The position numbers were made by a program, and so were the translations under genes. Shown piece by piece: positions 4,515-41,449 of a stretch of 64,000 nt of DNA. This DNA comes from Christensenellaceae bacterium (lineage in GTDB: Bacteria > Bacillota > Clostridia > Christensenellales > Borkfalkiaceae): positions 56,534-120,533 of the forward strand of contig JAZOCB010000015.1 in the NCBI GenBank assembly GCA_045596265.1, read 5' to 3'. The stretch's first letter is position 1. Each line of letters opens with the position of its first letter. Under the pieces are notes generated by a model. It saw nothing but the letters and a program-made list of their open reading frames with translations. It was not told where the DNA came from and made no database searches.

Positions 4515-4528
4515 TTAAGGAGCTTGTT

Positions 4529-19656: not shown

Positions 19657-20958
19657 CTAGATCAGCTTTTTTTTGATTCTCCAACCTGATTTACCATTTT
19701 TTCCGATTGGCTCAATTACACCACACTCTTGCAACTTTTCACAAGACTGCCAACATTTTGTATATGTGACACCCTCAGGCAGACTCCCAACATTAATGGT
19801 TCGATTATTCTCTATATACTCATAAACCCTCTTGTCTGTTTCGCTGAAATTTGATACCTTAGCCACGTCGTGCGGTGATTGTGACTGTTGCTCATACGGG
19901 GCTGTTATATAACGTTTGTAGTTTTTCCAATATCCGTATGGATCACTTTTTTCACTACTTTCTATTTTTATGAGCGCCTTTGCGCTTTTATCAACAACTT
20001 TTTTATATTTATGATAATCAAGTAAATATGTGTCAAATTTTACCTGATTCAATATTTCTATAGCCTCATTTAATTCACGTAACTTAACAACCGGTCCTTC
20101 AAACTGAGAAAGATCTTCCTCGCAAATCTGCACGTCACCCCAGTTGCCGGAAAACAATATTTCTGCCTTATTTTCAATGATAAACATTTGCATATGATTT
20201 TCCCACTTTATTCCATGTTTATAGGCAAGAACATCCCATACTGGTTCTTTATATGCCGTGGCTATCGCGTTCTTCATTAGCCGCGGATAAGATGATATTA
20301 TATTGCCTATAATTTCTTTGGTCAATATACGTTTTAATTTATCTAAATTATTAATAATATCATCCCACTTTAGGCTTTTATTGCAAAAATATATTTTTTC
20401 AAGCTCCCAAATATAGGCGTCTTGATCCTCAATATTAACAACATACTTGTTTAATACTTCAGACACGTACTCCTCCCTGCTTCTATCATTACAAAAACAC
20501 GGACAATTTTGATTTTTGCGAAAATACGGACTATATTCCCATTTTACATAGATATATTTCCTAATATAATCAAGCTCAATCCTTTGCTCGTCAGTGATTT
20601 TGTTTGTCATTTCAAAATACAAAAGCTTATATACATTTTTATTGATATTTTTAAGCTTTTGCGAAAAATCAAGCAAAGCGCCCCCGTCTAAAGTATCCAG
20701 AATTTTCTTAAAATCGTAATTCTCAATATCATACAACCTTTGGCACTTTTCCTCAATACTTTCTTCGCCAAAACGCTCACTTAATAAATTATCGATTGAA
20801 ATAGAAAAAAGCTTGGATAGGGTGTAAAGGGTCTTAAGCTTTATGTTTTGCATATTTTCCCACTGACTTACCGCAGCCGGACTAATACCCAGCATTGCCG
20901 CAAGCTCACTCTGTTTTAAATTATTTCTTTTTAAAAGCTCATAAATGTAAGCGTTCAT
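19657..20958 (-). CDS. XRE-family HTH protein with a long uncharacterised C-terminal region (433 aa)
   Basis: N-terminal HTH (LKQSELAAMLGISPAAVSQWENMQ). The C-terminal end looks winged-helix-like (VYEYIENNRTINVGSLPEG...LQECGVIEPIG). It overlaps the upstream gene by 20 nt. Confidence 0.8.
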   Translation of the reverse strand: MNAYIYELLKRNNLKQSELAAMLGISPAAVSQWENMQNIKLKTLYTLSKLFSISIDNLLSERFGEESIEEKCQRLYDIENYDFKKILDTLDGGALLDFSQKLKNINKNVYKLLYFEMTNKITDEQRIELDYIRKYIYVKWEYSPYFRKNQNCPCFCNDRSREEYVSEVLNKYVVNIEDQDAYIWELEKIYFCNKSLKWDDIINNLDKLKRILTKEIIGNIISSYPRLMKNAIATAYKEPVWDVLAYKHGIKWENHMQMFIIENKAEILFSGNWGDVQICEEDLSQFEGPVVKLRELNEAIEILNQVKFDTYLLDYHKYKKVVDKSAKALIKIESSEKSDPYGYWKNYKRYITAPYEQQSQSPHDVAKVSNFSETDKRVYEYIENNRTINVGSLPEGVTYTKCWQSCEKLQECGVIEPIGKNGKSGWRIKKKLI

Positions 20959-22357
20959 CTTCTGCCCTCTCCGTTATTGAAAAATATTTTTCTCTTATTT
21001 TTTCTAAAGATAAATTATCTAAGTCAGCTAATAATTCCATGGTTTTTTCTTTGTTGCGATTTTTATTATATGCACTGTAACTGGTGCTTTTAATAATTTT
21101 AACTTCATAATCCACAGCATCGGATTTAACCGAATCCCTTATAGATTCTTCTTCGCTTTGAATATCATCAATACCCACAAATGAGTCGTATGTTTCAACG
21201 TACTCCCTCTGCCCTTGTGACAACATTTCTTCAAGCGGCTCTAATTCTTCCTCTTTTATGACATATGGCGTTGGGAAGCAACTTATCTCACGATTTTTTT
21301 TCGTGTTTTTTATTAGATAATGCAGTTTTTTTCCGTCTTTATACATATACGCTTTAATCGGCGCCTTAAACTGATTAAAACCTTTTTTCAATGAATCAAG
21401 AATATTTCTTTTTACTTTATCATTCACAATGTAACCCAATAACATATCGTTTAAGCGCGCACCACACTCAATGAGCAGCTTAATGGCTTTTTTTGTCAGG
21501 TCTTCTTTATCGTATATAATGTTAAATTTCTTTAAAAACACATTGCTATCTTCTTCTCCATCTTCATGAACAACATCGTTTTTCTGAACAAAAACCAACA
21601 ATATATCCTTATAAAAATCAGGACATGCCTCAATGCGTTTGATCCATAATCTTCTTTCATCACCACGACTTATAACCGCCTGGCATAAATCATCTATATA
21701 ATCCATCTTAAAATGATAGTCAAAATTTTTATATGCTTCCCATATTTTTTCTTCTTTACTTGCCCTATGCATTAACGCACTTTGCTTTCTTATCTTGAAC
21801 TTTATCTCTGCGATTGACGGTTTTTTCTTTATATGCGCTACACGCTCTTCTGGCAACATTGCGGACATCTCGCTATCTGGCAAAAAATCTTTAACTTCAT
21901 AAAAATATTTACATATAAAGTCAAATTCCCTTTCTTCGTTGACGGAAAGTGAATTATCTACCAGTTTACCTAAAAGTAGATTAAACCTCGCCTCAATCGC
22001 CGTTTCTTGCTCCTTAAGCGCCCAATACGTCTCCCTGTTTTTTACACGCTGAGACCATTCCGTGTCATAAGGAAAATACTCATACTTATACCTGAAATCA
22101 TCTTCACGTTCTCTTTCACCGTTTAAAATTTCATCCATAGTAACGCCATAAAATCTTGACAACGCTTGAAGATTTTCAATTGACGGTAAAGCCTCTCCTC
22201 TCTCCCATTTGCTCACAGTTTCTTTAGAAATAAAGTCATTAACGCTATCCGAAAGGAATTCTGTAAACACTCCCGGCATGCTTTCTTGAGTCAGTCCCTT
22301 CTCTTTTCTCAAGTCGCTTAAAAAATTACCTATTCTCTTCTTATCCATAGTAACCAC
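20939..22357 (-). CDS. XRE-family HTH protein with a long uncharacterised C-terminal region (472 aa)
   Basis: N-terminal HTH (LRKEKGLTQESM...VSKWERGEALPSIENLQALSRFYGVTMDEIL). It shows weak similarity to the downstream 433-aa protein (EREFDFICKYFYEV versus QRIELDYIRKYIYV). It overlaps the upstream gene by 17 nt. Confidence 0.8.
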   Translation of the reverse strand: MVTMDKKRIGNFLSDLRKEKGLTQESMPGVFTEFLSDSVNDFISKETVSKWERGEALPSIENLQALSRFYGVTMDEILNGEREREDDFRYKYEYFPYDTEWSQRVKNRETYWALKEQETAIEARFNLLLGKLVDNSLSVNEEREFDFICKYFYEVKDFLPDSEMSAMLPEERVAHIKKKPSIAEIKFKIRKQSALMHRASKEEKIWEAYKNFDYHFKMDYIDDLCQAVISRGDERRLWIKRIEACPDFYKDILLVFVQKNDVVHEDGEEDSNVFLKKFNIIYDKEDLTKKAIKLLIECGARLNDMLLGYIVNDKVKRNILDSLKKGFNQFKAPIKAYMYKDGKKLHYLIKNTKKNREISCFPTPYVIKEEELEPLEEMLSQGQREYVETYDSFVGIDDIQSEEESIRDSVKSDAVDYEVKIIKSTSYSAYNKNRNKEKTMELLADLDNLSLEKIREKYFSITERAEDERLHL

Positions 22358-22727
22358 CTAATAATATTTTTTTAAATTCAAACTCTAATATTTTCCATTT
22401 TTTATATTGATAATTGCTTCTGCTCTTTTTTTTGATTGCCAACTTTTTTTCTTCGGTAATTCCGTAAAGTAACAATCGTTTTTGCTCTGACGAGTTGTGA
22501 ATATGAAAATACTGATCATTTTTATGTTTGATTTTACCTGCTATGTATTCTTCACGGGTTATTTGTTTAACATAAATAATCGCATCTTTCTGGTGATGCT
22601 TGACCCGTGGAGTATACCTTACAATCAAAGCCGCATCTTTCGCTGATTCCGATTGAACATAAAAATCTTTCAGTAAATATTTATTTCTCCCAACATGCCC
22701 GCATTTTGCTCTAACTTCAAAAAACAT
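22341..22727 (-). CDS. Hypothetical basic protein (128 aa), first gene of the cassette
   Basis: ORF with codon usage like the two HTH genes. GGAGGTG lies upstream of the ATG. No family recognised. Confidence 0.65.
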   Translation of the reverse strand: MFFEVRAKCGHVGRNKYLLKDFYVQSESAKDAALIVRYTPRVKHHQKDAIIYVKQITREEYIAGKIKHKNDQYFHIHNSSEQKRLLLYGITEEKKLAIKKKSRSNYQYKKWKILEFEFKKILLGGYYG

Positions 22728-25511: not shown

Positions 25512-26054
25512 TTATCTTTTTTCAAAATCATAAACGACCACCCCCGACAGGATAACCTCTGCCCCCGGGATAAGCCCTCCCCCGTCGTAAAGGTATTCCG
25601 TGCGGTCGCGGTAAAATCTTACGCCCATTAATAAAAGCTCCTCTCCGTAATCCTCGCAAGTAAGCGTAGGCGGCGCAAAAGCCTCCTCACGGGCGCCCGA
25701 TCCGTCGGTTTTGGCAAGGCCCCCTGCCGTAAACATAACACCGCCCTTAAGGGAATAATCGTGATAAAAGGTAACCTTAATAAGTCCGCCGTCCACCGTC
25801 GCCCTCACCTTGAGCGTGGCGCTTTTGTCGCTTGCGGGGCTTTTCAGCCCTTGGCTTACGGTATCGCCACCTAAAACAAGGGTGACCTCCTCATTTAAAA
25901 AGACAGTTTTCTTTATATATTGACTGCTGTCAAAAAACAGATCGTATCCTTTTGTCCAAAAGGCAAATATTCCGCTGAAAAAACCCATCGTCACAAGCCC
26001 AAGGCACAGGGCAACCCCAATCGCCACAAGCCTTATCTTAAGCTTTTTATCCAT
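25512..26054 (-). CDS. Membrane-anchored hypothetical protein
   Basis: MDKKLKIRLVAIGVALCLGLVTMGFF signal-anchor followed by a soluble beta-rich domain. The internal Met at 26054 is preferred over the ORF start at 26150. Confidence 0.65.
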   Translation of the reverse strand: MDKKLKIRLVAIGVALCLGLVTMGFFSGIFAFWTKGYDLFFDSSQYIKKTVFLNEEVTLVLGGDTVSQGLKSPASDKSATLKVRATVDGGLIKVTFYHDYSLKGGVMFTAGGLAKTDGSGAREEAFAPPTLTCEDYGEELLLMGVRFYRDRTEYLYDGGGLIPGAEVILSGVVVYDFEKR

Positions 26055-26156
26055 AATATACCTTCTTTGCTTTATTATCCCCCAAATTATACCACTGTCC
26101 GCGGCAGTTGTCAACGGGGACAGAAAAGAAAAGCAATACAGGCAAAACAAAAATAT

Positions 26157-26198
26157 AAAAAAGTAGGCCTATATGCCCGTTATCGGACATATAGGCCT
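26157..26198 (-). terminator. 11-bp perfect hairpin (bidirectional terminator) built on a dispersed-repeat copy
   Basis: AAAAAAGT-AGGCCTATATG-CCCGTTATCGGA-CATATAGGCCT-TTTGTTTTT. It sits directly downstream of 26206..26670. Confidence 0.75.
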
Positions 26199-26205: not shown

Positions 26206-26670
26206 TTAATTTTTAATCATATTGTTTTTTATCTTATTTACCATCTCTGTCGAAAAATCGTTCTTATACACCTTTACACAATAATGCTTATTGTTAAATG
26301 CCGATACATGACCAAATCTATTTGCTTTTGGTCTATCGTCGATAAAAATGTAAAAATCTTGACCGATGATCTGATCATATCTCAGCTTTTTTTCTTCAAT
26401 TGAAACAATATCCTTGATATAAACAATATTTTTTACACATAGGGCACTTCTGACAATAATTACGTTATCGAAGAACTCAACCCATTCGCGATCTATCAGA
26501 TTTTTTAGAGCGCAAACCCTTCTAATCAAAAACACATATACCAACAATACACATATAGTCACAATAATATCGCGCCAACAGATCATCAAAGCCAACGGAA
26601 GTATTAGGGACAAAAAGAATCTAATAACTTTTACCTTAACAAATTTTTTGTCTGGCTCTAAATAAAACAT
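26206..26670 (-). CDS. Putative RHS-toxin immunity protein, second (orphan) paralogue
   Basis: Two N-terminal TM helices plus a soluble domain clearly homologous to 26756..27265 (VKNIVYIKDIV.I.E..L.Y......DFY..ID.RP....F.H.S..NNK.YCV..YK.D.S.EMVNKI). AAGGAGG RBS. Confidence 0.7.
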   Translation of the reverse strand: MFYLEPDKKFVKVKVIRFFLSLILPLALMICWRDIIVTICVLLVYVFLIRRVCALKNLIDREWVEFFDNVIIVRSALCVKNIVYIKDIVSIEEKKLRYDQIIGQDFYIFIDDRPKANRFGHVSAFNNKHYCVKVYKNDFSTEMVNKIKNNMIKN

Positions 26671-26755
26671 ATTTTAGCCTCCTTATTTACAAAAAACAAA
26701 GACATCATCTATCCTGTAACAAAAACACCCGAAATGTTATGTTAGTAAAAAAATA

Positions 26756-27265
26756 TTAAGATTCACCTGCAGATTGTTTTTGATTTATCATATCCATAAT
26801 TTTATTTACCATCTCTATAGATAAATCGCATTTATATATCCGAACGCAATATTTTTTGTTGTTGGTCAGCGATATATGATCAAATTCATTGCCCATAGGC
26901 CGATTATCTATAAGCATATAAAAATCTTGTTCTAAGTCCTTAAAGAGGTAACTTAATCTTTCCTCTTTAATATCAACAATATCTTTTATATACACAATAT
27001 TTTTTACGCCCAAAAAGTTTTTTACAACAATAGACTCTTCATAAAACTCAAACCATTCAATAGTTTTCATTAGTTCATAAACATACCATAAATAAATTAT
27101 GATGATGAAAAATAAGGCCACCGCTATGATCGCGATCCTTTCCTTCCAATCCACGCCATCTATAGTCGCTGCAATAAGCAAAAATCCTATATATGGCAAT
27201 GAAGTCACTATCAATATAAATATCAAACTATGAATGCTTTTTTTATCTGGTTTTAAATAAATCAT
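26756..27265 (-). CDS. Putative cognate immunity protein of the RHS C-terminal toxin
   Basis: It lies immediately downstream of the RHS gene, has two TM helices plus a soluble domain, and is very AT-rich. The start MIYLKPDKK (27265) parallels the paralogue's MFYLEPDKK. The ORF opens at 27343, overlapping the RHS 3' end. Confidence 0.65.
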   Translation of the reverse strand: MIYLKPDKKSIHSLIFILIVTSLPYIGFLLIAATIDGVDWKERIAIIAVALFFIIIIYLWYVYELMKTIEWFEFYEESIVVKNFLGVKNIVYIKDIVDIKEERLSYLFKDLEQDFYMLIDNRPMGNEFDHISLTNNKKYCVRIYKCDLSIEMVNKIMDMINQKQSAGES

Positions 27266-27281
27266 CTTGTTGTTTACTTTT

Positions 27282-30200
27282 TTAATTGCAGAATATATCA
27301 AGAACGGTATTGAATAAATTACCAATAAATTCAAATAAATCATTTATTGTGTACTCATTTGTTCTGGACACATAAACATTAACCGCCATATTAGCAGCAG
27401 TAAGAGGACTGTTCATAATTAAGCCAAATATCACGCTTTCCGTTACCTTTAATTTAGCGTATTTATCTATCAAAAATAAACCTCGTCCGATTAAAGACAA
27501 GAAAGCACTCATAGCGCCCGATACAAAAACGGTTTTAAGGTTTATCTCTTTCCAAGATTTTTCATCCAATATTATTTGTGATGCTATATCCCCAACCGCA
27601 CCTACGCTAAACGTCAGACTCAATAATGCTAATATCGATATATGTTTAACAGATGTAATCACTCCAGAAATACCACCAATCAGCGCACCCAATAATATGC
27701 CACCAAATATATTTTGACCGTTTTGATGCGCTTGGACTGCACCGTATGTTCCGCCTAAAATCGCCCCTATTATCGCAGAAATTATTATGCTAATTGCAAT
27801 CCTGCCACTATGGTCCGAATACATAATTGGGTTGTTTTTGCAGTAGCAGTAAAGATCAATACCGCAAAATGTTTTGGGATCTAAATATGAAAAGGCATCG
27901 GGTGAGATCCAACGGCGAAGCAGAGGACTGTAATACCTTGCATTGCAGTAGTAAAGGCCCGTTTCAACGTCGTAGTAATATCCCCTGTATCTAAACGGGT
28001 TAAGGTTGCCAATAAAGTTGGGATCGGCATTTACCACACCGTTTGCATCAAGCACTTTATGATTACCCCAGGCGTCGTACTCATATCGGGCAACAAGGAT
28101 ACCGACACAGTCGGTAAGGCCAATGACGTTGTTTTGTTCGTCACGGACATATTGGTAGCAGTACCCATCTTCCAGGGTGGCTTTTGGATAAATCAAGTCA
28201 GTCCCGTCGTGAAGCTTAAAGCCAACAAGACTGTCCCCATCGTAAAAATAAACCAGCCTTTGGGTTGTGCCGATATTTTCGGCAATGATCTTTGTTCCGT
28301 CCACGAAATAATTTTTATCCGTGGTGCCGGTTTTGCCGATGCGGATATTTTGGTGATCGTAAGCGTAGCTTGTTGTGACGCCGTTGACGGTCACCCCGGT
28401 CAAAAGACCGCCCTTTGACCAAGCGCAGCTGAAGGGCTTATCTGTATCGCCCGTTGCGGATAAAAGGTTGCCGGCGACGTCGTAGGTATAATTTACCTCC
28501 TGATTGCCTACGGTTGCCTTTACTACCCTGCCGGCGCTGTCGTAGAGATAGCAGGTCATTACGTTACCGTTGCCGTCATTTTCAACAACCGTTGACAATC
28601 TGCCCGACTGGTCGTAGGCGTAGGTTTTTTGCCATAAAGTTACTTCCCCTTCGCTACCGGTAAGCTTTTTCACCTCGCTGACCAAACGGTTATTTTGGTC
28701 ATAGGTATAATACATGCTGTAGTTACCTAACGTAGGATCGTCGTAATATGACGTAGAGGTCACCTTTTGCGTTAAAATATTACCCCTTTCGTCGTAAGTG
28801 TATTCTCTTTCGCTGAAATTATCTGGGTCGAGTGAATACCTTACCTTTTTAAAGCGTAGAAGTGTATTTCCGTTGCCATCGGTATCGTAGGTGTAAACAT
28901 AGGTGCTGCCGCGGCCACAGCATATCCTTTTGGTCGCAAGAAGCCCTAAAGGATTATAAGTATATTCGGTAGACAGACATTCTATCTTGGACAACACCCT
29001 ATCGGGGGCGTTGCCAAAATATTTTTCAACACCGGTTATCCTTGGATTTGATAAAACGTTTTCGTCATAGCAAGTATGTGACTGCGATTTATCAAAGGGG
29101 GACGTTGTATATACGGTACCGCTGTTTTCATTTTTGATAATAAAACCGAACGACGTTGATGAGGTAATATCTTCTCTTACACATTTTTTAACGTTTCCGT
29201 CGTAATCAAATTGGTATATATACTGCTTGTCGTTATGTGTGTCCGTTACGGTTAACAACGGCTGGGCAAGCTGACTTGCTCCGCCAAGATTTGCGTATGT
29301 ATAAGTTACGTCATTCGATCCGCTTAAGCTATTGCCTGCAAGTGAACCGTAATGTAAGCCGTGCATCCTTCCATATAAGTCGTAAACGGCTGAAACCACG
29401 TCTTCCGACATCCCGTCCTTAATATATCTGGTTTCAATTTTAGTCGTAGCGGATTCTTCGTCGAAGACCTCTGTTTGAATCTGAACGGGGACTTCCTCTT
29501 CGCCGTTAAAAACTGTGTACGTGGCCGAGTTGCCTTCATGATCGTGAATAATGCCATATTTGACGTAGCCGTCAGTTACCGTGCGCACAAGGCCCTTGTC
29601 GTAGGTAATTTCGTTACGTGCCTTGACTACACCGTTTACCTTTAAGGTAACGGATAAAAGCCTGCCAACGCGGTTGTATTCGTAAAGCTTTTCATGAACA
29701 ATTCCACCGACAGTTAAGCTTTCTTTGGCGATTACGTTAAAAGGCTTGTTATACTCGTACACTATGGTGTTAATGCCGTCGGATTCGCTTTCAAGATAAC
29801 CGTCTTCATCATAGGTCGATACAGCGCATACCATGCGGCCTTCGCGTTCGCCATATGCGTTGCGTCCCAATAAAACTGATTGTACAAGGTTGCCGCTGCC
29901 GTCGTAGGTATATTCCTTGGTTACGCCGTATTCGTCCGTTTCCGAAAGGGTTTGACCGAAGTAATTGACCCTTGACTGACTTAAACTGGAATGATTATTT
30001 ACTGCTGAAACGGCTTTTTCAAGGATAATACCGTCTGCGCCAAAAATCGTTCTTTGCTCGGTGACGTTATATCCGTTTTGTGAAACAAATTTGTTTGTAA
30101 AGGTTAGTGGCAACGCGTAAGCAAGGTTGTCGGCACCGTTGACGGTGAAGGTTAATTCCTTTACCTTTGAAATGCGCTTTTTACCGTTGTTGCAAATAAC

Positions 30201-32591
30201 GTCAAAGCATTCAACGTCGTTTACAGCATATGAATTACGCATTTTGTTTAATACCGTTCTTAACAAATCTTGCTCGGTAAAATAGTGATAAGTATCTTTG
30301 TTGTTTTCAATTATTATGGTATCACTATTATCGGCCTTTGTCAATGTGATTTTGTTAATTTGTGTAAAATAAATTTGGCCGTCGCCAGCTGAAACCAAAA
30401 GATCACTCTTTGCCGTCGGCGCAAAATTGAGGGGGCTCAATTCAATCTGTTGAACAATAAAGTTGTTTAAATTTACAATATTAATTTTTAATTCCTCAAG
30501 CGTAACGACGTCTTTCTCATCTTCGACTTCAGGTAAAGATAATACGATCCCAACCTTTTGCCATGCGTCGCAGGCGGTACCATCAACAAAAACAGAGGCC
30601 GTTTGTTCCTGACAAGTTTCACCGTTCAGGGCAAACTTATATTTTGCCGTAAGCTTTAACCTTTCGCAAATCTCCTTATGCTTCAAATAAAACGAACAAC
30701 CGTAATATTTATTTGCTTTTTCCGTATCGTCACGCCACAAAATGAATTCATCCGGGACGTCGTATATGTATTGACCGTAAGAACCTAAAGCACAAGGTTC
30801 CTCGTTAAATAAAACGCTTCCGCCGGCACCGGCAAGGGTCTTTGTGGATCCCACAGATAAATCCTTTAGACCAATTATTTGCCCTTCGGCGTTTTTAACA
30901 GCTTCAAAGCTGCTGATAATTTTATTTTTACGGTTTAAATAATATATGATTGAAACGTTGTTTTTATTTGTAACAACCGTGCTTAACACCCACTCTGTTT
31001 CGCCAATCATGTTGTAGTCAAACCTTAAAGTGTCTACAACCTTATAATTAGGCTCGTATGCGCCCGCATAACACTGTTTTGCGTACTGGATTTCTTTTAC
31101 ACGACAATCGTCGTCATAATTAATTAATATAACGTTTATTCCGTTAATTTCGGTGACAGCTTTTAAAAGCTCTTTTTCGTCATATGAAAGGCCGTAACGT
31201 TGAATAACCGACGTACCGACTTTTGTTTCAAGCCTAATTAAAGTATTGCCACTATAAACAAATTTTGTCGTCTTTATACAGGACGAGCCTTTGCAAGCTT
31301 TTACTTCGTCAATATTGCCCTGCTCTGTGTACGTAAAAAGCAAGCTTTCGTTATATCCGTCTTCATTGTTATATTGACTTCTTGCATCAAAAATGCGAAC
31401 AAGCTTGTCGCCGTCATAAGAAAATACCTTATGTACGTCACCGTTGATGCCGGCAACTATATCCGTAATACAGCCGTTACTGTTAAAAGTCAGCTTGTTG
31501 TTGCTTTCATCAATAATTTCTACCCCATTGGATTTTTCCTTTAACACAAGCCCAATGCCGTCGCAATCGTGATAAAGCCCCTCATTGCTATCATAAAGCT
31601 TAAACTGATGTAAGTAACCATTGCCGTCCATGTAAGTGTAAGTTTGACCCTGTTTTTTAACAAACTGCTGTACGTTAAGCTTCCATCCTCTTGGCATTTT
31701 AGACAAGGACTCACAAAAGTCTTCACTAATCGTGCTATAAATGGCTGTTACGTCAATTGCCCTGTCATTTGCCCCTACGCTCATGCAAGGCAAGGTATAC
31801 GTCAATCTTCCTGTAGATAAATTTACTTTTGGATTGTCACCGTATTCCCCCTCACTTTTGCAAGTCATTGCCATAAAGCTATCTTCTAGGACGGTAACCT
31901 CTTGCGTGCAAGTTTTTTCATCGTATGAAATAGTCACTGCTTCGTCGCCATATCTTAAAATTTCGGGCGAGTAAGTAAAACCATCCGCAAACGTTTGGTG
32001 GCCACCGTTAGTGTAATTTACGTTTATCGTCATACCGTGGGGATTAAATCTTTCACCGTCAAGATAATGTCTGTATTTTGGCGGCGTGCAAACCTCAATT
32101 GATTGAGTAATAAGCTCGCCATCTTCGTAATAAATCATTTCAAAAACAGGAGCATTTTCGCCGCTGGCATTTATCAAAAAAAGATTTCCGCCGTTAGCTG
32201 TCAGCTCTATATTTATATTTTGCGCTGTCGTTGACGTGGGTAGCATGGCTGACAAGTCAATATCTGCGTTAGTATATGCCCCATAATAGCACGTCTCACC
32301 GTTTGCGAAAAAAGATCCTCCTTCTTTAGGAAAAACCCTTAAATAGATAGAGATTATCTTTTCGAGGGGTACGCTGAAAATGCTTTTATTAATAGTGATA
32401 ACTGACTTGATCTCAAAACGGTCTTCGCTGTCAGAGTTTTTCACGGCAATATCGTCATACTCGTCGGTTTCTAACCAATAAGTTTTTAACGTGCCGTCCT
32501 CGTTCGACTCTTGCTTATAGTTCTTAAATGAGAACCACGTGCTGTCTGCAATTTTTGTTTTTGTTAATACCTGTGTGTTTTCTGTACTCAT
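27282..32591 (-). CDS. RHS/YD-repeat polymorphic toxin (1769 aa) with a glycine-zipper membrane-type C-terminal domain
   Basis: Many YD repeats (YTYDxxGN..., YxYDxxGR...). The RHS core end reads RYYSPLLRRWISPDAFSYLDP...LYCYCKNNPIMYSDHSG. The roughly 172-aa CT (about 27285-27800) is hydrophobic and Gly-rich (GAILGGTYGA, GGILLGALIGGISG). The N-terminal region has an Ig-like KYRHYLDGERF...VTISY module. No signal peptide or LXG/WXG motif was seen. Confidence 0.9.
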   Translation of the reverse strand: MSTENTQVLTKTKIADSTWFSFKNYKQESNEDGTLKTYWLETDEYDDIAVKNSDSEDRFEIKSVITINKSIFSVPLEKIISIYLRVFPKEGGSFFANGETCYYGAYTNADIDLSAMLPTSTTAQNINIELTANGGNLFLINASGENAPVFEMIYYEDGELITQSIEVCTPPKYRHYLDGERFNPHGMTINVNYTNGGHQTFADGFTYSPEILRYGDEAVTISYDEKTCTQEVTVLEDSFMAMTCKSEGEYGDNPKVNLSTGRLTYTLPCMSVGANDRAIDVTAIYSTISEDFCESLSKMPRGWKLNVQQFVKKQGQTYTYMDGNGYLHQFKLYDSNEGLYHDCDGIGLVLKEKSNGVEIIDESNNKLTFNSNGCITDIVAGINGDVHKVFSYDGDKLVRIFDARSQYNNEDGYNESLLFTYTEQGNIDEVKACKGSSCIKTTKFVYSGNTLIRLETKVGTSVIQRYGLSYDEKELLKAVTEINGINVILINYDDDCRVKEIQYAKQCYAGAYEPNYKVVDTLRFDYNMIGETEWVLSTVVTNKNNVSIIYYLNRKNKIISSFEAVKNAEGQIIGLKDLSVGSTKTLAGAGGSVLFNEEPCALGSYGQYIYDVPDEFILWRDDTEKANKYYGCSFYLKHKEICERLKLTAKYKFALNGETCQEQTASVFVDGTACDAWQKVGIVLSLPEVEDEKDVVTLEELKINIVNLNNFIVQQIELSPLNFAPTAKSDLLVSAGDGQIYFTQINKITLTKADNSDTIIIENNKDTYHYFTEQDLLRTVLNKMRNSYAVNDVECFDVICNNGKKRISKVKELTFTVNGADNLAYALPLTFTNKFVSQNGYNVTEQRTIFGADGIILEKAVSAVNNHSSLSQSRVNYFGQTLSETDEYGVTKEYTYDGSGNLVQSVLLGRNAYGEREGRMVCAVSTYDEDGYLESESDGINTIVYEYNKPFNVIAKESLTVGGIVHEKLYEYNRVGRLLSVTLKVNGVVKARNEITYDKGLVRTVTDGYVKYGIIHDHEGNSATYTVFNGEEEVPVQIQTEVFDEESATTKIETRYIKDGMSEDVVSAVYDLYGRMHGLHYGSLAGNSLSGSNDVTYTYANLGGASQLAQPLLTVTDTHNDKQYIYQFDYDGNVKKCVREDITSSTSFGFIIKNENSGTVYTTSPFDKSQSHTCYDENVLSNPRITGVEKYFGNAPDRVLSKIECLSTEYTYNPLGLLATKRICCGRGSTYVYTYDTDGNGNTLLRFKKVRYSLDPDNFSEREYTYDERGNILTQKVTSTSYYDDPTLGNYSMYYTYDQNNRLVSEVKKLTGSEGEVTLWQKTYAYDQSGRLSTVVENDGNGNVMTCYLYDSAGRVVKATVGNQEVNYTYDVAGNLLSATGDTDKPFSCAWSKGGLLTGVTVNGVTTSYAYDHQNIRIGKTGTTDKNYFVDGTKIIAENIGTTQRLVYFYDGDSLVGFKLHDGTDLIYPKATLEDGYCYQYVRDEQNNVIGLTDCVGILVARYEYDAWGNHKVLDANGVVNADPNFIGNLNPFRYRGYYYDVETGLYYCNARYYSPLLRRWISPDAFSYLDPKTFCGIDLYCYCKNNPIMYSDHSGRIAISIIISAIIGAILGGTYGAVQAHQNGQNIFGGILLGALIGGISGVITSVKHISILALLSLTFSVGAVGDIASQIILDEKSWKEINLKTVFVSGAMSAFLSLIGRGLFLIDKYAKLKVTESVIFGLIMNSPLTAANMAVNVYVSRTNEYTINDLFEFIGNLFNTVLDIFCN

Positions 32592-32592
32592 T

Positions 32593-33891
32593 TTAATTTT
32601 TCTCCTTATCGTTTTTTTTGTTGATTTTTTGTTTGTTTTTTAAGCTTTTTGGTGCTGAGGATTGCTTGTGGGATCTTGCGTGGGCTTCGTAAACCTGCAC
32701 GGGATAGGATTCCTCCTTAAGCCACGCAAGATCGGGATTAAAAAGAAAAAATTCTTCATACCGACGATTAAAATACGGATCGCACGTCCCCCTTGAAATT
32801 TTGGCAAGCCATTCTTCATAGGACTTCGTGTAATAATGATCAATACATATCTTGTCGGTGGTGAGCCCTTTTTGCCAGGCACCGCCGTCTTCTACGGGGG
32901 CCTTGTTTTCGTCCACGACGCTGTATCCGTCAACGGTATATCCGTTGTGGGTCAGCATTTGCCGCATATAGTATGGCTGAACGAAAACCTTGCCCAATCC
33001 CTGCTGGTTGGTTGACTTACTTTCGGTGGGGAACCTTTCGCGCACGGGTAAATCTGACTTGTACCTTTGGCCGTTGGCACCGTAAGTTTTCCAACCGATA
33101 AAAAGCCCGGCGTTGTCTTCAAAGTCCTTTAAAAAGGTCTTCAGATCCGTGCCATCGACAACCCTTACCATCTCGTCGGAGTCCACGTACCCTATCCAAC
33201 GGCTTTCCCGTCCGAATTTTTTCAGACAGTGATTGTACGCATCGTGCTGGGCAAAATCATGGCTTTGGGAAAAATCTATTATGGTTAGCCTTTCCTGCAG
33301 GCCGTCCGGCAAAGCTTTTGCAAACTCCTTAATGCTTGGCTCGCTTGCGTGATCATAAATATAAAAATGCTCTACGCCCTGCCCTACGTGCCAGTTTAGC
33401 CACTCCTCCAGATATTCGTGATCATTTCGGATGATGAGGCAAATTGATGCGTAATATTTAAAATTTGTACGCTTCAGCCTTGCCTTTATCCTTTTTTCAA
33501 TACGATAGGCCCTTTCCTCACGCAAGGCTTTCAAGCAGGCGCTCACTTGAGCCTTTTGTGCGGAAATTTCCATAAGATTTTTTTTGTTCCCAACGTCATA
33601 ACCGCTTTTTATGTAATTGGTGAGGGCGACCCTTTCAAGGGCTTTTAACCTTTTTATCTCCGCCACGTAAACTTCTTGCTTTGTAAAATAATCCTCCTTT
33701 TTGGGTCTTTCAATAAACTTTTTACCGATGAAAAATACGTCCATACCTCGGGCTTCAGCCTTTTTTAAAAAATCCGAATCGTCAACGAAATACGATACTC
33801 CCTTTCCGTCACCGTAATACGGTTTTACGTCTAAAACCTTTTTCGTTAGGTAATCATAATTTATCAAAACCCTTTCTTTTTTTAAGTTCAT
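32593..33891 (-). CDS. GT92/GT2-like glycosyltransferase with an N-terminal helical extension
   Basis: ICLIIRNDHEYLEEWLNWHVGQGVEHFYIYDH ... YVDSDEM (DxD) fits the GT92 (DUF23-like) pattern. ATG 33891 sits 8 nt after AAAGGAGG. Its stop lies 1 nt before the RHS ATG. Confidence 0.7.
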   Translation of the reverse strand: MNLKKERVLINYDYLTKKVLDVKPYYGDGKGVSYFVDDSDFLKKAEARGMDVFFIGKKFIERPKKEDYFTKQEVYVAEIKRLKALERVALTNYIKSGYDVGNKKNLMEISAQKAQVSACLKALREERAYRIEKRIKARLKRTNFKYYASICLIIRNDHEYLEEWLNWHVGQGVEHFYIYDHASEPSIKEFAKALPDGLQERLTIIDFSQSHDFAQHDAYNHCLKKFGRESRWIGYVDSDEMVRVVDGTDLKTFLKDFEDNAGLFIGWKTYGANGQRYKSDLPVRERFPTESKSTNQQGLGKVFVQPYYMRQMLTHNGYTVDGYSVVDENKAPVEDGGAWQKGLTTDKICIDHYYTKSYEEWLAKISRGTCDPYFNRRYEEFFLFNPDLAWLKEESYPVQVYEAHARSHKQSSAPKSLKNKQKINKKNDKEKN

Positions 33892-33961
33892 CTTTTTTCC
33901 TCCTTTGACTTCTTTTAGCGTGAATACCGTTTTTTGATTAATAAATCCACTAAAAACCACA

Positions 33962-33987
33962 ATTAAACGGCTTATAGACGGACTTTT
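33962..33987 (-). repeat. Dispersed repeat family copy
   Basis: Reverse complement reads AAAAGTCCGTCTATAAGCCGTTTAA. Confidence 0.7.
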
Positions 33988-34344
33988 ATTGATAAAACGG
34001 TATTTTAAAGGGCAACCTCAATTTTTGAGGTTACCCTTTAACGTAAGTGGTTTTTAGTTTTGCTTTTGTGGACCATATGGCTTGTCCGTGTACTGCTCTC
34101 TTTGAAAATAATCACTCCTTTTTTTAAAAATTTCCCCAAGCGTTGACATCATTATACACTTTTAAAAAAGGCGATTTCAAGACTCTCTGCCATTTTTAAA
34201 TGTTTTTTTAAAAAAATTGTCAATAAAAAAAACCGCGGCTTTTTTGCCACGGTTTTTCTTTCGGCTTAAAATCTTTTTTGATCTTACCCTGCCCTTTGGA
34301 TAATGAAAAATAAATATGCGACGTATTAACGATATTTCAGCATG

Positions 34345-34397: not shown

Positions 34398-34808
34398 TTA
34401 TCTCTTTGAGAACTGAGGAGCACGACGAGCTTTCTTTAAGCCGTACTTCTTTCTTTCCTTCATACGTGGGTCACGTGTTAAGTAACCTGCTTTCTTAACG
34501 ATGGTACGGAGTTCAGGTTCTGCAACGACAAGTGCGCGTGCGATACCGTGACGGATTGCGCCTGCCTGACCTGTGAAGCCGCCGCCGTTAACGTTTACGA
34601 AAACGTCGTAATTTGCTTCCTTTTCGGTTAAGGTAAGGGGTTGACGGATAACGAGCTTAACTGTGTCAAGTGCGCAGTATTCGTCAATAGATCTACCGTT
34701 GATTATATAAGTGCCGTTGCCGCCGGGAATAAGACGTACTCTTGCAACTGCTTTCTTTCTTCTGCCCGTTCCCCAGAACTGGACTTTTTTCTTTGCTGCT
34801 TTAGCCAT
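34398..34808 (-). CDS. rpsI: 30S ribosomal protein S9
   Basis: [17 protein letters not shown]...ING ... C-terminal RRAPQFSKR. Confidence 0.97.
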
Positions 34809-34823
34809 GAATGATCCCTCCTA

Positions 34824-35258
34824 TTAATACTCGATCTTAAGTTCAACGGGTTGTTGAGCCTGCTGCTTGTGTTCAGCGCCCTTGTAAACGCGTAACTTTT
34901 TAAGCATCTTTTTGCCGAGTGTGTTTTTGGGAAGCATACCCTTTACAGCTTCGTAAACGGCAACGTCTGACTTTTTAGCCATGATCTCTGAATAAGGGAT
35001 CTGCTTTAAGCCACCGACGTAACCGGTGTGGTAGGTATAAAGCTTCTGCTCTAACTTCTTGCCGGTAAGAACGACCTTATCGGTGTTTACTACGATAACG
35101 AAGTCACCGCAGTCAACGTTTGGTGTAAACGTTGGTTTGTGTTTGCCTCTTAAAACCGCTGCAACCTGAGATGCTACTCTGCCTAAAGGAATACCTGCGG
35201 CATCAACAACGTACCATTTTCTCTCAACAGTGGCAGGGTTTGCCATATATGATTTCAT
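34824..35258 (-). CDS. rplM: 50S ribosomal protein L13
   Basis: RKWYVVDA...[27 protein letters not shown]. Confidence 0.97.
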
Positions 35259-35522: not shown

Positions 35523-36455
35523 TTAGCCCTTATCCCGCCGCTGCACAAGACAGTAAAAGCCCTCCTCCCGGTCAAAAAATGATCCGGGGATAAAAAAGCC
35601 CTTTTCAAAGCCCTTTATCCTTTCACCAAGCCTTGCGGGCACGGCATACAAAAATAAGGGTGCCCCATCGGTTTCAACAATGCCGAAAAGATAAAATCTT
35701 TCCTTGACGGATATCTTATAAAACCTTGAAAAAGCAATGGTTTTTTCAAGGCCGAAAAATCGCTCGCCCGACGACATAAGGGCGTATATGCTTACCCGGT
35801 CTGCTCTTTTTTCCCCTTGCGAAGCCTTATAAGATACTGGCAGGCCCCCTGTGGCGCAGGGGCCGTATCCAAAGACCTTATCAAACGACTTTTCTGCAGG
35901 GTAAAGGCACGGCGCATCCTGGTAAGATGGGCGCGGTTTTTCCTCTTTTTGGAAAGCCTCAGGGCGGATTTTTTTAAGGCAAGCATCCTCAAAAGGGTTA
36001 TCCTCTTCACTTAAAGCCTCCTCCTTTATGCAACAATTTTGGTAATAGCCTTCGTAATAATTTTCCTCGGCGATCTGCTCGTCGTCGTATGGGGCCACGG
36101 CCTCAGCCCCCGCGGGATAGGTACGGTTGCCATGCCCTGCGTTTTCCCCGACCACCTCGGCAAAGGACCTTTTAAACACACCCCTAAACTTACCTGCGGC
36201 GCAAAGGATATCATCCCCCCGATAGAGAGCGACGGAAAGCTCCTCGGTGAATTTCCCATCCACGGTGAACTCCTGCAAAAGAGCCGTCCAATAAAAGCCC
36301 TCTCCGTCGTAAACGACTATCTTAAGCCCCTCTGTGGGCGTCTTATCCACAAGGGAAGCTTCACCCAAAATACAGCCCTTTTGGGGGCTGAGTCTTACAA
36401 CGGCCAGGGGCCTGCCCCCGTCAAGGGTAAGGGGGTAAGTCTTTTTTCGGTACAT
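35523..36455 (-). CDS. Hypothetical protein (about 310 aa)
   Basis: Long ORF with backbone codon usage. The Met at 36455 is preceded by AAGGAAG; the ORF opens at 36476. No family recognised. Confidence 0.6.
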   Translation of the reverse strand: MYRKKTYPLTLDGGRPLAVVRLSPQKGCILGEASLVDKTPTEGLKIVVYDGEGFYWTALLQEFTVDGKFTEELSVALYRGDDILCAAGKFRGVFKRSFAEVVGENAGHGNRTYPAGAEAVAPYDDEQIAEENYYEGYYQNCCIKEEALSEEDNPFEDACLKKIRPEAFQKEEKPRPSYQDAPCLYPAEKSFDKVFGYGPCATGGLPVSYKASQGEKRADRVSIYALMSSGERFFGLEKTIAFSRFYKISVKERFYLFGIVETDGAPLFLYAVPARLGERIKGFEKGFFIPGSFFDREEGFYCLVQRRDKG

Positions 36456-36763
36456 AAAATAAACTTCCTTGTTCATTTTATGCCGCCGTTAAAGCCGTAT
36501 ATGATTGTACCTCAGCCTTTGGGGCGCAAAATAAGCGGTTTTGTCTTTTTTTGCCCTTTTTTGGGCGGAATTTTTAACGCCTTCCGCATAAAAAGCCGAA
36601 AATGACTGAAAATAACATAAAAAATGTAAAGAAAATTTTAATTTTGCTATTTACAACTGCCAAATTTGGTGGTAAAATATATTTGGTGGAGATTGGCGCA
36701 GTTTTGCGCCCGACACCTTGAAAATACTAATTTTATCTTTAATATTCGGGAGGAATATTTTTT

Positions 36764-39211: not shown

Positions 39212-40723
39212 ATGAAAAAGTTATTATGTTTGGTTTTAGCGGTTATTTCAATTTTTGCAATGACTGCCTGTGGCACCGGTTGGAAGTCTGAGGTTACCGA
39301 TTATTCCGGCGAAGTATCCTCTAACGGCGGCTTTGCAGTCGTTAAAGGCGACTGGGTTTACTACGTTAACGGCGTAGAGTTAAACACGGCTGAAAACGGC
39401 TTCGGCACACCCGTCAAGGGCGCCCTTGTAAGAACGAAATTAGCAGACCTTGGCAACGAAAACGCCGTAAGCCAGATCGTTGTACCAAAGCTTGTATATT
39501 CCGACGCAACTCAAGATAAAGGCTTTTATATCTTTGGCGACTACGTATATTACACCTCCCCCAGCAACGAAAAGAACAAGGCCGGTGAGGTTTTAAACAC
39601 CAACCTTGCTTTTATCAGAACCAAGCTTGACGGCACCGATACCAAAGTTATCCACACGGCTGACGCACTTAACGTTGCCTACAGATTTGTTGAAAGCGGC
39701 GAAAAGGTTTACCTTGTAACCAACGAAACCGTTGACGGCGACAACCTTTTAGTAAGCTACGACGCAGCAACCGGTAAGGAAGTTGCTAAATCATCCAAGA
39801 TAACAAGCTACCTCTTCCCCGAGGATTTAACTGCTGACTACTGCTACTACGTAGAAGTTGCCCACGACGAAGTTTTAGACGAGGACGAAGCCTTCCACAA
39901 CGTTAAAAAGTTCAACTTTGACGGCACGGGCGACGCACTTGTTTTAAGCGGCGATATGGGTACCCAGGGCGTAACCTTCAGTCTTATCAAGGACACGGGC
40001 GCAAACCTTTTCTTCTCAGAAACCTACGTTGATACTTCCGTAAGCAACATCACCCGTTACCTTGGCGTAAAGAAGGCTGACCTTGGTGAAGACGCTGCAC
40101 AAAACTACGCTAAAGCAGTTTTACTTAACAACAGCACCACCGACGCAAGCATTATATTTGATTCCAAGTCATACTTTGCAGACTTTGACTGCATCGTATA
40201 CCACGACGCAACCTACGGCTTTATCCGTTACAACTATACCGACGCAGCTAACCCCGAAACCTTCGGTCACCAGCAGCTTATCAGCGACAAAAAGGTCGTT
40301 GAAACAGTTTCTGCCCTCACCGTTGCTTTCTACGAAGGCGGCTACGTATATATGACCAACTCTGACAACTACTATTACAGGGTAGAGCTTGAAGCCCTTT
40401 TAAACGGCACCGCAACCGCAACACAGGTTACCTACGTTGCCCTTAAGACGACTTCTACCTGGCACAACCCCGAAATCGTAAACGGCTTTATGCTTGCCGC
40501 TGTCAGCGACGAACCCTTCTACGGCTACGTTTATGCAACCGCCCTTGTAACCGAAGAGCTTACCGAGGACGAAAAGGAAGCAAAATACGACCTTTACGAC
40601 TTTACCGTTGAAGAAAATATCGTAAGCTTTGTTAACACAAGAATCGGCGTTGTAACCGAAAACGACAAGACAGCTTACGAAACCTATATGGAAGAAACCT
40701 TTGAAGACGAGGACGAAGAATAA
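39212..40723 (+). CDS. Lipoprotein, probable beta-propeller (DUF5050-like), acidic C-terminus
   Basis: Signal peptide plus lipobox (AMTAC). Recurrent G-D-W/Y-V-Y-Y blades (KGDWVYYVNG, FGDYVYYTSP, GGYVYMTN). AGGAG RBS. Confidence 0.75.
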   Translation: MKKLLCLVLAVISIFAMTACGTGWKSEVTDYSGEVSSNGGFAVVKGDWVYYVNGVELNTAENGFGTPVKGALVRTKLADLGNENAVSQIVVPKLVYSDATQDKGFYIFGDYVYYTSPSNEKNKAGEVLNTNLAFIRTKLDGTDTKVIHTADALNVAYRFVESGEKVYLVTNETVDGDNLLVSYDAATGKEVAKSSKITSYLFPEDLTADYCYYVEVAHDEVLDEDEAFHNVKKFNFDGTGDALVLSGDMGTQGVTFSLIKDTGANLFFSETYVDTSVSNITRYLGVKKADLGEDAAQNYAKAVLLNNSTTDASIIFDSKSYFADFDCIVYHDATYGFIRYNYTDAANPETFGHQQLISDKKVVETVSALTVAFYEGGYVYMTNSDNYYYRVELEALLNGTATATQVTYVALKTTSTWHNPEIVNGFMLAAVSDEPFYGYVYATALVTEELTEDEKEAKYDLYDFTVEENIVSFVNTRIGVVTENDKTAYETYMEETFEDEDEE

Positions 40724-40885: not shown

Positions 40886-41407
40886 TTATAAAAACAGCAT
40901 TACCGTCCCGTAAAATAAATACCCCAAATGAATAGCGTTCCATAACCAATAAACCGATAAAGCAGTGATAATATTTCTCCACGATAATTTTTTTGCAAAA
41001 TAATTTTTGGTTGTAGAAGCAAAAATCACCAAGGGGTACTTCTTTTTTATCTGCGTGTAATAAAAAAAGTCCATATATATAATTGCGCCTATAAAAAACG
41101 CCGACCCGACAATAATAGCTGCAAGCAATAATTTTAAGTTAAAAAACATATTGCTTTGGTTGAAATAACAACAAAGATGGTTTAAAAACCCCGATACGAA
41201 AGACAGCATACAGCCCGTAAACAAAGTAAAGCCGTAAGCGTTTGACTCTTTGTTTATACGATCTTCTTCGGTAATAAACGGTTTTTTGGCCTCCTCCATA
41301 ACCTTGTCAAGGCGCTTTGGCACCAATTTAAGAAAGTGAACAAGAAGGGCAAAGCTTGTCGTGTAGCTAATACAACCCACCACGACGTAAATAATATTTG
41401 TTATCAT
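40886..41407 (-). CDS. Polytopic small membrane protein, tandem paralogue A
   Basis: Four or more hydrophobic helices. The start MITNIIYVV parallels MITNINIIC of the neighbour. Shared LVPKRLDK / MPKRLER loop. AT-rich. Confidence 0.65.
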   Translation of the reverse strand: MITNIIYVVVGCISYTTSFALLVHFLKLVPKRLDKVMEEAKKPFITEEDRINKESNAYGFTLFTGCMLSFVSGFLNHLCCYFNQSNMFFNLKLLLAAIIVGSAFFIGAIIYMDFFYYTQIKKKYPLVIFASTTKNYFAKKLSWRNIITALSVYWLWNAIHLGYLFYGTVMLFL

Positions 41408-41449
41408 AAAGCTCCTTTTTGTCTGAAAATCCAACGTTTAAAGTGATTG

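Follow-up and report, generated by a model that had tools for sequence, protein, structure and literature searches.

Tse5 (RhsP1/PA2684) of Pseudomonas aeruginosa is a T6SS (type VI secretion system) RHS effector, whose pore-forming C-terminal toxin is kept soluble inside the protein's own cocoon (PMC9637101, PMC10684867). Membrane-acting toxins are also found in the glycine-zipper protein EsxX of Staphylococcus aureus, which depolarises membranes and is delivered by the type VII secretion system (T7SS) (PMC12744356), and among the ionophore toxins at the C-termini of CdiA proteins (CdiA-CT) (PMC11630599). Large toxins can leave the producing cell by routes that involve holins, as in the type 10 secretion of the Yersinia entomophaga Tc toxin (Yen-Tc), which includes the RHS subunit TcC (PMC10847048), and in the TcdE-dependent release of Clostridioides difficile TcdA and TcdB (PMC10516005). 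An accessory enzyme characterises the three-component polymorphic toxin system S8-PTS, which consists of a subtilase, a BetaH toxin and an immunity protein (PMC9424270). Here we describe a locus at 26206-33891 of a 64-kb stretch (64,000 nt, hereafter the window) of contig JAZOCB010000015.1 from a Christensenellaceae bacterium, in which a gene for a GT92-like glycosyltransferase (GT) directly precedes an RHS gene and two putative immunity genes, Imm1 and Imm2.

The locus shares with Tse5 an RHS cocoon, a hydrophobic, glycine-zipper-type C-terminal domain (CT) that is probably self-cleaved and would act on the membrane, and a putative membrane immunity protein. The two differ in that Tse5 has a PAAR domain, is delivered by the T6SS of a diderm in a VgrG-dependent manner and lacks a glycosyltransferase partner, whereas the window RHS protein lacks PAAR and T6SS, has an immunoglobulin (Ig)-like N-terminus and a CT without sequence similarity to that of Tse5. 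EsxX and CdiA-CT resemble the locus in having repeated GxxxG motifs in transmembrane (TM) helices at a polymorphic C-terminus and a small multi-TM immunity protein encoded directly downstream, but they use LXG/T7SS or CdiB/type V secretion, lack an RHS shell and show no sequence homology to the window CT. Yen-Tc and TcdA/TcdB are large, signal-less cytoplasmic toxins encoded next to a phage-type holin, and the same layout is present in six of the 12 GT-RHS cassettes described below; in contrast, the window has no holin, endolysin, spanin, TcA or TcB, the holin of its relatives belongs to the Holin_LLH family, and bacteria, not animal cells, are the likely targets. S8-PTS offers the parallel of an accessory enzyme whose gene is conserved directly upstream of a toxin-immunity pair in Gram-positive bacteria, yet its enzyme is an S8 protease that is secreted and its toxins have Sec signals, as opposed to a cytoplasmic GT92-like enzyme and signal-less toxins here.

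Dedicated cytoplasmic protein glycosyltransferases encoded next to their substrate, soluble enzymes of GT-A or GT-B type, include HMW1C, which serves HMW1, and the virion-glycosylating enzymes of mycobacteriophages. The glycocin S-glycosyltransferases SunS and ThuS (PDB 7msn, 7msk) are likewise soluble enzymes encoded beside an exported protein that they modify before export, an arrangement to which the locus would correspond if the RHS toxin is the acceptor. All of these enzymes belong to families other than GT92, and they act on small peptides, adhesins or capsid proteins. In a comprehensive polymorphic-toxin survey, glycosyltransferases appear solely as toxin domains, and our literature search returned no paper that describes a glycosyltransferase gene, of GT92 or any other family, as an accessory to RHS toxins. 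Pore-forming RHS CTs with membrane immunity, glycine-zipper toxins of Firmicutes, holin-dependent release and three-component systems with an accessory protease (PMC9424270) are thus already known; the element that appears to be new, with no description found in the searched literature, is a glycosyltransferase conserved as an accessory of RHS toxins, whether or not a holin accompanies it.

All four genes lie on the minus strand: GT (32593-33891; 432 aa), which starts at an ATG with the ribosome-binding site AAAGGAGG, the RHS gene (27282-32591; 1769 aa), Imm1 (26756-27268; 170 aa) and Imm2 (26206-26670; 154 aa). They are flanked by a promoter-like site at 34151-34180 (minus strand; TTGAAA, an 18-nt spacer, TATAAT) and by an intrinsic terminator at 26165-26198 (minus strand; a 15-bp stem, then a T-run) that marks the operon end, and therefore form one operon of about 8 kb. 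A TG directly ahead of TATAAT was read from the sequence and was not flagged by the promoter scan. The operon has as its neighbours the rplM-rpsI pair (34398-35258) on one side and, on the other, a membrane-protein gene with its own promoter that adjoins spo0A. The TAA stop codon of GT is followed by a single A and then by the RHS ATG, and the AAGGAGA ribosome-binding site of the RHS gene falls within the last GT codons. A sequence-only reading of the window had pointed to this GT92-like gene, to its stop 1 nt from the RHS start and to the embedded ribosome-binding site, all of which are present, and had taken them to suggest co-translation; the tight coupling holds in the window, but it is not universal, since gaps of up to 88 nt occur in relatives.

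To survey these relatives, genome and metagenome collections were scanned with a GT alignment, the contigs of individual GT homologues (labelled L and a number) were looked up and RHS genes were located by tblastn. An RHS gene follows directly 3' of GT, on the same strand, in 12 lineages, comprising every long-form GT of Christensenellales or Clostridia type with enough downstream sequence: the window, L001, L002/L082, L004/L020, L007, L008, L012/L088, L028, L079/L080, L081, L083/L084 and L085. The GTs of these lineages are 40-73% identical to one another, and the RHS cores are about 25-30% identical to that of the window. The GT stop and the RHS start are -8 to +88 nt apart, and the spacing is at most 30 nt in 10 of the 12 lineages, two of which have overlapping genes; none of 223 GT homologues is fused to an RHS protein. 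The adjacency that had been noticed in a single genome, and whose conservation elsewhere was the point at issue, is found in 12 divergent lineages and additionally in L090. Short-form GTs of termite-gut contigs L022 and L027 stand upstream of large open reading frames (ORFs) that inspection by eye assigned to a second RHS type. At the N-terminus they look like the second RHS of L007, and the L027 ORF ends in a VNLxTG-type shell-start motif. The L037 GT stands upstream of a comparable large ORF, assigned on weaker grounds. A tblastn search with the window RHS core (E <= 1e-4) gave no match in L022, L027 or L037.

The L090 contig, the weightiest single observation, shows how the pair can be re-assorted. 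Its positions 4004-5663 match window positions 34235-32578 at about 98% DNA identity over a block made up of promoter, leader, GT and RHS ribosome-binding site. The homology includes the first two RHS codons (window 34215-32585 when counted from the promoter to these codons) and stops at codon 3, and the RHS gene that follows in L090 is unrelated to that of the window, encoding 1521 aa without the N-terminal domain of the 1769-aa window protein. The flanks are also unrelated, with PemK and an ABC transporter in L090 and rpsI in the window. Recombination has therefore kept the GT "head" and swapped the whole toxin gene, or has set the head before a second toxin gene.

We considered that GT and RHS might be two cargo genes of one mobile element that travel together without a functional link. 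Cassettes L079, L081, L083, L085 and L087 do lie near serine recombinases, transposases or an ImmR/ImmA-like pair; large serine recombinases adjoin L085, L087 and L089, and an HTH_3 plus Peptidase_M78 pair (ImmR/ImmA-like) precedes L079 and L083. Such hitch-hiking is nevertheless hard to reconcile with the re-assortment of the L090 cassette, in which the RHS gene was exchanged precisely at its start codon and GT was kept. Gene order and orientation are also maintained down to 40% GT identity and about 25% RHS identity, at different genomic sites, and the gap is mostly 30 nt or less, with overlap in two cases. We regard hitch-hiking as very improbable, and GT as very probably coupled in function to the RHS toxin; the two genes have the character of a selected pair that is re-assorted between toxins. 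One further holin-GT-RHS cassette, at L087:4346-11488, lies some 4 kb downstream of rplM-rpsI, in the neighbourhood that the window cassette also occupies. A DUF4368 protein, a DUF4096 transposase-like gene and a large serine recombinase accompany it there, and the rplM-rpsI region may be a shared insertion hot spot.

GT is a GT92-like enzyme with a GT-A fold and an intact DxD motif. It matches the Pfam families PF13704 (Glyco_tranf_2_4; 52.8 bits, cut-off 27.5) and PF01697 (Glyco_transf_92; 48.7 bits, cut-off 23), and because its DSD motif (D237/D239) and many further residues are invariant among 26 aligned homologues, it is probably active. In the AlphaFold2 (AF2) model (pLDDT 88.8), the GT-A catalytic domain (aa 146-400) is preceded by a beta domain at the N-terminus (aa 6-63) and then a long helical hairpin (aa 68-141). 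When this model was compared with the PDB by Foldseek, the top match was poplar GalS1, a GT92 galactan synthase (E 4e-12), followed by SunS/ThuS (E 4e-6) and other GT2-type enzymes; in a viral structure library, giant-virus GT92 proteins and phage GT-A enzymes ranked highest. Foldseek matches to GT were confined to the catalytic domain. A resemblance of the N-terminal ~150 aa to a phage tail-fibre assembly protein or DUF4376 was considered and dropped; neither Pfam nor PHROG gave a match. Hydropathy analysis revealed no TM segment in GT, which is therefore expected to act in the cytoplasm.

The neighbours of more distant GT homologues indicate where the family comes from. In L010, a distant long-form homologue is encoded between tape-measure/tail-fibre genes and distal tail genes, and in L013 the homologue falls between a tail-fibre gene and a holin-endolysin module (holin and endolysin recognised by eye from translations). 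GT homologues also occur next to tail-fibre-like genes (L003) and next to a tape-measure gene (L039). These neighbourhoods place the origin of the GT family in the tail-fibre and lysis modules of prophages. Two other observations concern the same family: L006/L024 carries five tandem GT92 copies among genes that look phage-tail-like by eye, and in termite-gut Bacillota a CotH-kinase-family gene lies directly 3' of holin-GT pairs that have no RHS gene (L009:10814-12070, L021:2627-3898, L016:1107-2372).

The substrate of GT could be the RHS toxin itself, a view that we hold tentatively, as somewhat more doubtful than likely. An unlikely but substantive alternative is that GT decorates a glycan of the producer envelope, such as wall polysaccharide or teichoic acid, and so masks the receptor of the adjacent receptor-binding protein, be it a tail fibre or an RHS toxin. 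In the manner of lysogenic-conversion glycosyltransferases, this would provide a second layer of self-protection or would keep released toxin off kin cells and debris. The same GT family is indeed found both beside prophage tail-fibre genes (L010, L013, L003) and beside RHS toxins, both of which bind surfaces, and the closest solved structure, GalS1, is a polysaccharide synthase. Cassettes L079 and L085 add a second GT92 and a UDP-glucose-dehydrogenase-like gene, which are typical of glycan-building loci. Single cytoplasmic wall-polymer glycosyltransferases of the TarM/TarS/TarP type need no flippase of their own, which also counts for envelope modification. On the other hand, GT is conserved at 40-58% identity, yet the N-terminal or receptor-binding regions of the RHS proteins are unrelated or absent, and a near-identical GT serves two unrelated RHS toxins. 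The GT has no membrane anchor and no lipid-carrier enzyme accompanies it, and the modelled N-terminal beta domain and helical hairpin of the long form look like a partner-binding module.

The additional genes of L079 (8367-9921) and L085 (8426-9995) are a second, short GT92 and a ~250-aa gene product resembling UDP-glucose/GDP-mannose dehydrogenases, and both intervene between the holin gene and the long GT. The dehydrogenase domain is fused to GT92 in many database homologues (P0055 and P0067 among them), and these fusions hint at a sugar donor of uronic-acid type.

The protein encoded next to GT is an RHS protein by several measures. Its shell of RHS/YD repeats (aa ~250-1596; 27804-31844, minus strand) opens, near aa 250, with the motif NPKVNLSTG, which also opens the shell in relatives, and it matches RHS_repeat PF05593 (55.7 bits, cut-off 22; E 5.6e-15) as well as TIGR01643. 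The shell closes with the Rhs_assc_core TIGR03696 (aa 1505-1596; 27804-28079, minus strand; 71.6 bits, cut-off 32.5, E 5.8e-20). Comparison of the core with PDB sequences yielded the Rhs cocoons 8h8a, 8cp6 (Tse5; E 2.6e-13) and 7q97. The last residues of the core, ...NNPIMYSDHSG (aa 1587-1596), form part of a cleavage-type motif (SPD...YSDHSG) and are a variant of the aspartyl autoprotease motif of the PxxxxDPxGL type, the upstream Asp being present in ...WISPDAF.... Both the 1769-aa YD/RHS ORF and the position at which its core ends are as the earlier reading had described them. Together with the immunity genes discussed below, we are highly confident that the locus is an RHS toxin-immunity system.

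Ahead of the shell, aa 1-160 (32112-32591, minus strand) form a beta-rich domain of narrow distribution, whose homologues (24-30% identity) were found only in other GT-linked RHS proteins (L001, L002/L082 and L083), and aa 163-237 (31881-32105, minus strand) give a weak Pfam match to a Big_3-type bacterial Ig-like domain (E 0.0077). The Big_3 stretch has matches in 2481 representative proteins, for the most part as tandem repeats of giant proteins, and a search of representative proteins with aa 1-250 was dominated by repetitive Big_3 (aa 160-245) and was uninformative for aa 1-160. In a database of 5.8 billion proteins, the N-terminal 870 aa matched only one 99%-identical fragment from a metagenome-assembled genome and one Big_3 protein. 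A single-sequence AF2 model of aa 1-250 was unusable (pLDDT 38.6). No cleavable signal peptide of the WapA type was evident, the first 80 aa containing no hydrophobic segment in a Kyte-Doolittle scan, and Pfam and NCBIfam detected no LXG, WXG or PAAR domain; the absence of these N-terminal features, already noted from the letters alone, is thereby confirmed. Features of Tc (ABC) toxins (TcA, TcB, SpvB, TcdB_mid) were found neither in the RHS protein nor in its neighbours.

The CT (aa 1597-1769 plus the stop codon; 27282-27803, minus strand) begins with a glycine-zipper multi-TM block (aa ~1597-1671) and continues with hydrophobic or amphipathic helices. Its 173 aa include four to five hydrophobic segments. 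The GxxxG motif occurs five times and the zipper triplet [GAS]xxx[GAS]xxx[GAS] 12 times, with overlaps, all within aa 1601-1647, a pattern seen in glycine-zipper toxins of the Tse5-CT, EsxX and TelE type and in agreement with the ~172-aa hydrophobic, Gly-zipper-rich domain that had been proposed. Base composition falls from the core onwards: the G+C fraction is 0.43 in GT and 0.42 in the RHS core, then 0.352 in the CT, 0.29 in Imm1 and 0.305 in Imm2, against a window mean of 0.435, so that the reported drop at the CT and the two downstream genes is borne out. Pfam searches with the CT gave only sub-threshold glycine-zipper, bacteriocin or holin-like matches (Gly-zipper E 0.7-9); the sole T6SS-type match was a sub-threshold TagQ hit inside the CT, at 17.8 bits against a cut-off of 300. 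The database of 5.8 billion proteins held no CT homologue, and PDB sequences gave no significant match. The CTs of seven related RHS proteins likewise show no significant sequence similarity to one another. An apparent homology between the window CT and that of L028, through a "DIASQ" motif, was rejected because the similarity was not significant.

What these CTs share is their opening. A glycine-zipper-rich multi-TM block begins the CT of every complete GT-linked RHS protein (window, L001, L007, L008, L028, L088), and the same is true of L090, whose CT runs into the adjacent ORF, of an orphan module in L008 and of the RHS fragment L011a. The raw tally of Gly-zipper-first CTs was 8 of 8. In the window, L028, L007 and L008, the CT is of TM type throughout and the immunity protein is a hydrophobic membrane protein. 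In L001, L088, L011a and L090, the TM block leads into either a soluble domain or HINT with a toxin, and the immunity protein is soluble where one was identified: a DUF7336 protein in L088 and, in L001, a 91-aa protein judged soluble by eye and without a Pfam match. Searches for pre-toxin or Pfam families in the CTs of relatives produced nothing above noise.

Because TM-only CTs pair with TM immunity proteins and soluble-domain CTs with soluble ones, the window CT is probably membrane-active, and we consider it a putative membrane-depolarising toxin. The idea of a membrane-permeabilising CT thus fits both the TM-type immunity genes and the pairing pattern in relatives. The L001, L088, L011a and L090 proteins also allow another interpretation: a glycine-zipper block that precedes a soluble domain could be an entry or translocation module rather than the lethal part, and the lethal activity of the window protein would then reside in aa ~1672-1769 or require both parts. 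The soluble immunity proteins of L088 and L001 speak for this interpretation. Against it, the distal 100 aa of the window CT are hydrophobic or amphipathic with no enzyme-like motif, the window immunity proteins are membrane proteins, as with the TM-only CTs of L028, L007 and L008, and Tse5-CT, EsxX and the CdiA ionophores demonstrate that such blocks are toxic on their own (PMC9637101, PMC12744356, PMC11630599). We therefore judge a pure entry function to be on the whole unlikely for the window block.

Imm1 and Imm2 are likely immunity proteins, and Imm1 is the candidate for the cognate partner of the CT. They are 42% identical (E 8e-37), and hydropathy shows in each two strongly hydrophobic segments followed by a C-terminal domain of about 90 aa, in keeping with the paralogous 2-TM proteins anticipated from the sequence. 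The accompanying suggestion that the second gene is an "orphan" fared less well: no mark supports it, and the 85-nt gap between the genes holds no orphan CT fragment. The two look like a tandem duplication and not like a cognate-plus-orphan module. Imm1 matched nothing significantly among PDB sequences. It has two in-frame candidate starts (window 27268 and 27343), both opening ATGATTTATTT (MIYL...), and use of the upstream one at 27343 would create a 62-nt overlap with the end of the RHS gene and add a third hydrophobic segment. Both lack a good ribosome-binding site, as opposed to Imm2, which has its own AAGGAGG.

A candidate route by which such a protein could leave the cell comes from the genes upstream of GT. 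Many loci encode, directly upstream of GT, a ~120-aa single-TM protein that matches Holin_LLH (PF09682); the L011 protein scores 30.5 bits against a cut-off of 24.9 and the L009 protein 22.9 bits, and phrog_6918, annotated as a holin, matches the upstream proteins of L007 and L009. A holin precedes GT in six of the 12 GT-RHS lineages (L007, L028, L088, L079, L083, L085), whereas L008 had too little upstream sequence to be scored. The cassette order in relatives is holin, then in some cases the short GT and the UDP-glucose-dehydrogenase-like gene, then GT, RHS and immunity. Among 45 window ORFs scanned against Pfam, which are most of those of at least 120 aa, there were no holin genes and no T6SS or T7SS genes, including VgrG and EssC/Esx. 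The earlier statement that such genes are not nearby is upheld; its companion, that no export route is visible, applies to the window but not to the relatives, where the Holin_LLH protein upstream of GT offers a candidate. Release of the toxin by a holin or lysis route is, in our estimate, just short of an even prospect.

A dedicated secretion system encoded outside the window, either a T7SSb or one that recognises the N-terminal domain, would be another explanation of export, with the holins of relatives then being a trace of GT phage ancestry only. Only 64 kb are visible, five of the 12 lineages, the window among them, have no adjacent holin, and holin-GT pairs occur without RHS in L009, L011, L017 and L030. 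We consider such a system improbable: no LXG, WXG, PAAR or signal sequence was detected in the RHS protein, the order holin-GT-RHS-immunity recurs in six lineages, and the N-termini of GT-linked RHS proteins are not conserved and therefore provide no common recognition domain.

Taken together, the data are best explained by a three-component polymorphic toxin system of GT, RHS toxin and immunity, in which the toxin is glycosylated in the cytoplasm and released through a holin or by lysis; we regard this model as evenly balanced between right and wrong. The RHS cocoon would fold in the cytoplasm and enclose a hydrophobic payload that it has itself cleaved off, on the pattern of Tse5 (PMC10684867), and the soluble GT, translated just before RHS from the same mRNA, would glycosylate the toxin there. 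The signal-less complex would then exit by a holin or lysis route resembling type 10 secretion or TcdE, and not by Sec, T6SS or T7SS; as the window contains no holin, this would be supplied in trans, or release would occur by cell lysis. At the target cell, the Ig-like N-terminal region would make surface contact, and the glycine-zipper CT would insert into the target membrane and dissipate the membrane potential, by analogy with Tse5, EsxX and the CdiA ionophores. Within the producer membrane, Imm1 and Imm2 would block the CT.

Several observations weigh against this model. The window itself contains no holin (tblastn with six holin homologues, E up to 10) and no endolysin (Pfam scans), and an adjacent holin is also absent from L001, L002/L082, L004/L020 and L081. 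Searches of Pfam, PDB sequences and the 5.8-billion-protein database detected no characterised toxin homologous to the CT, and the glycine-zipper block stands ahead of a soluble toxin domain in the four relatives named above. No Ser/Thr-rich tract and no N-terminal domain is conserved in all GT-linked RHS proteins, L081 and L090 lacking that domain. The absence of a signal peptide and the assignment of TM segments depend on hydropathy rather than on a dedicated predictor. Extended to the family, the model would make GT92-RHS cassettes, with or without Holin_LLH, a second GT, a UDP-sugar dehydrogenase and ImmR/ImmA-like regulators, a phage-derived, glycosylation-dependent, type-10-like route of gut Clostridia that operates through lysis of a producer subpopulation, a generalisation that we find rather doubtful. 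An anti-phage defence system was also considered and rejected; PADLOC gave no match for GT, RHS, Imm1 or Imm2.

The leader of the operon (~250 nt; 33892-34150, minus strand) is about 98% identical in L090, as is the promoter-like site within the same block. It contains a G+C-rich hairpin at 34005-34035 followed by TTTAAAATA. Read in more detail, positions 34005-34120 (minus strand) present an AAAGGAG site, a possible tiny ORF (ending in MVHKSKTKNHLR and a stop codon), and then the hairpin GGGTAACCTCAAAAATTGAGGTTGCCC with TTTAAAATA. An Rfam scan for a riboswitch or known RNA in the leader found no family at threshold, and the hairpin, which is attenuator-like in appearance and conserved in L090, has a possible role as a terminator or attenuator. 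Just 3' of the operon terminator is a perfect 12/12 sigma-70 consensus promoter with an extended -10 (26086-26114, minus strand), which presumably drives a membrane-anchored 212-aa ORF (25512-26150; likely start MDKKLKIRL...) with a core-genome G+C fraction of 0.495 and no Pfam family. We found no att-type direct or inverted repeats of at least 10 nt bordering the island.

Elsewhere in the window, Pfam scans identified the housekeeping genes dnaN, yidC, jag, gidB, lgt, truA, gltX and ftsH, an energy-coupling factor (ECF) transporter and serine dehydratase, together with a two-component system, sugar-utilisation genes and a type I restriction-modification system, while rplM, rpsI, GTP-dependent phosphoenolpyruvate carboxykinase and spo0A were identified by reading translations and not by scan. 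The restriction-modification genes, at 13-4514, comprise a C-terminal HsdR fragment at the window edge, HsdM and HsdS, and are followed by a DUF3800 protein. A low-GC stretch at 19657-22727 (minus strand; 0.31-0.36) encodes two large XRE/HTH_3 proteins (433 and 472 aa; 20-nt overlap) and a 128-aa protein without a family; PADLOC returned only weak HTH-type matches there (RmrA, HTH_VI), and the stretch could represent a further island or a module for regulation or defence. ORFs of 317, 503 (with a lipoprotein-like N-terminus), 182 and 171 aa without a Pfam family lie next to core genes at 35523-36476 (minus), 39212-40723 (plus) and 40886-41965 (minus), and 58018-60928 has no ORF of at least 120 aa and no Rfam match.

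For the export of the many signal-less RHS toxins of Gram-positive gut anaerobes, this locus and its relatives supply a testable candidate in the form of the conserved accessory GT and, in half of the cassettes, a phage holin. Recombination of a promoter-leader-GT unit precisely at the RHS start codon also reveals a new level of modularity, in that the accessory "head" of these toxins is exchangeable as well as the toxic "tip". If GT modifies the toxin, the locus would encode the first glycosylated RHS or polymorphic toxin and define a new three-component class, and if it modifies the envelope, it would represent a new form of receptor-masking immunity. Either outcome would tie phage late-gene modules to toxin deployment in abundant, little-studied gut Clostridia, including those of Christensenellales type.

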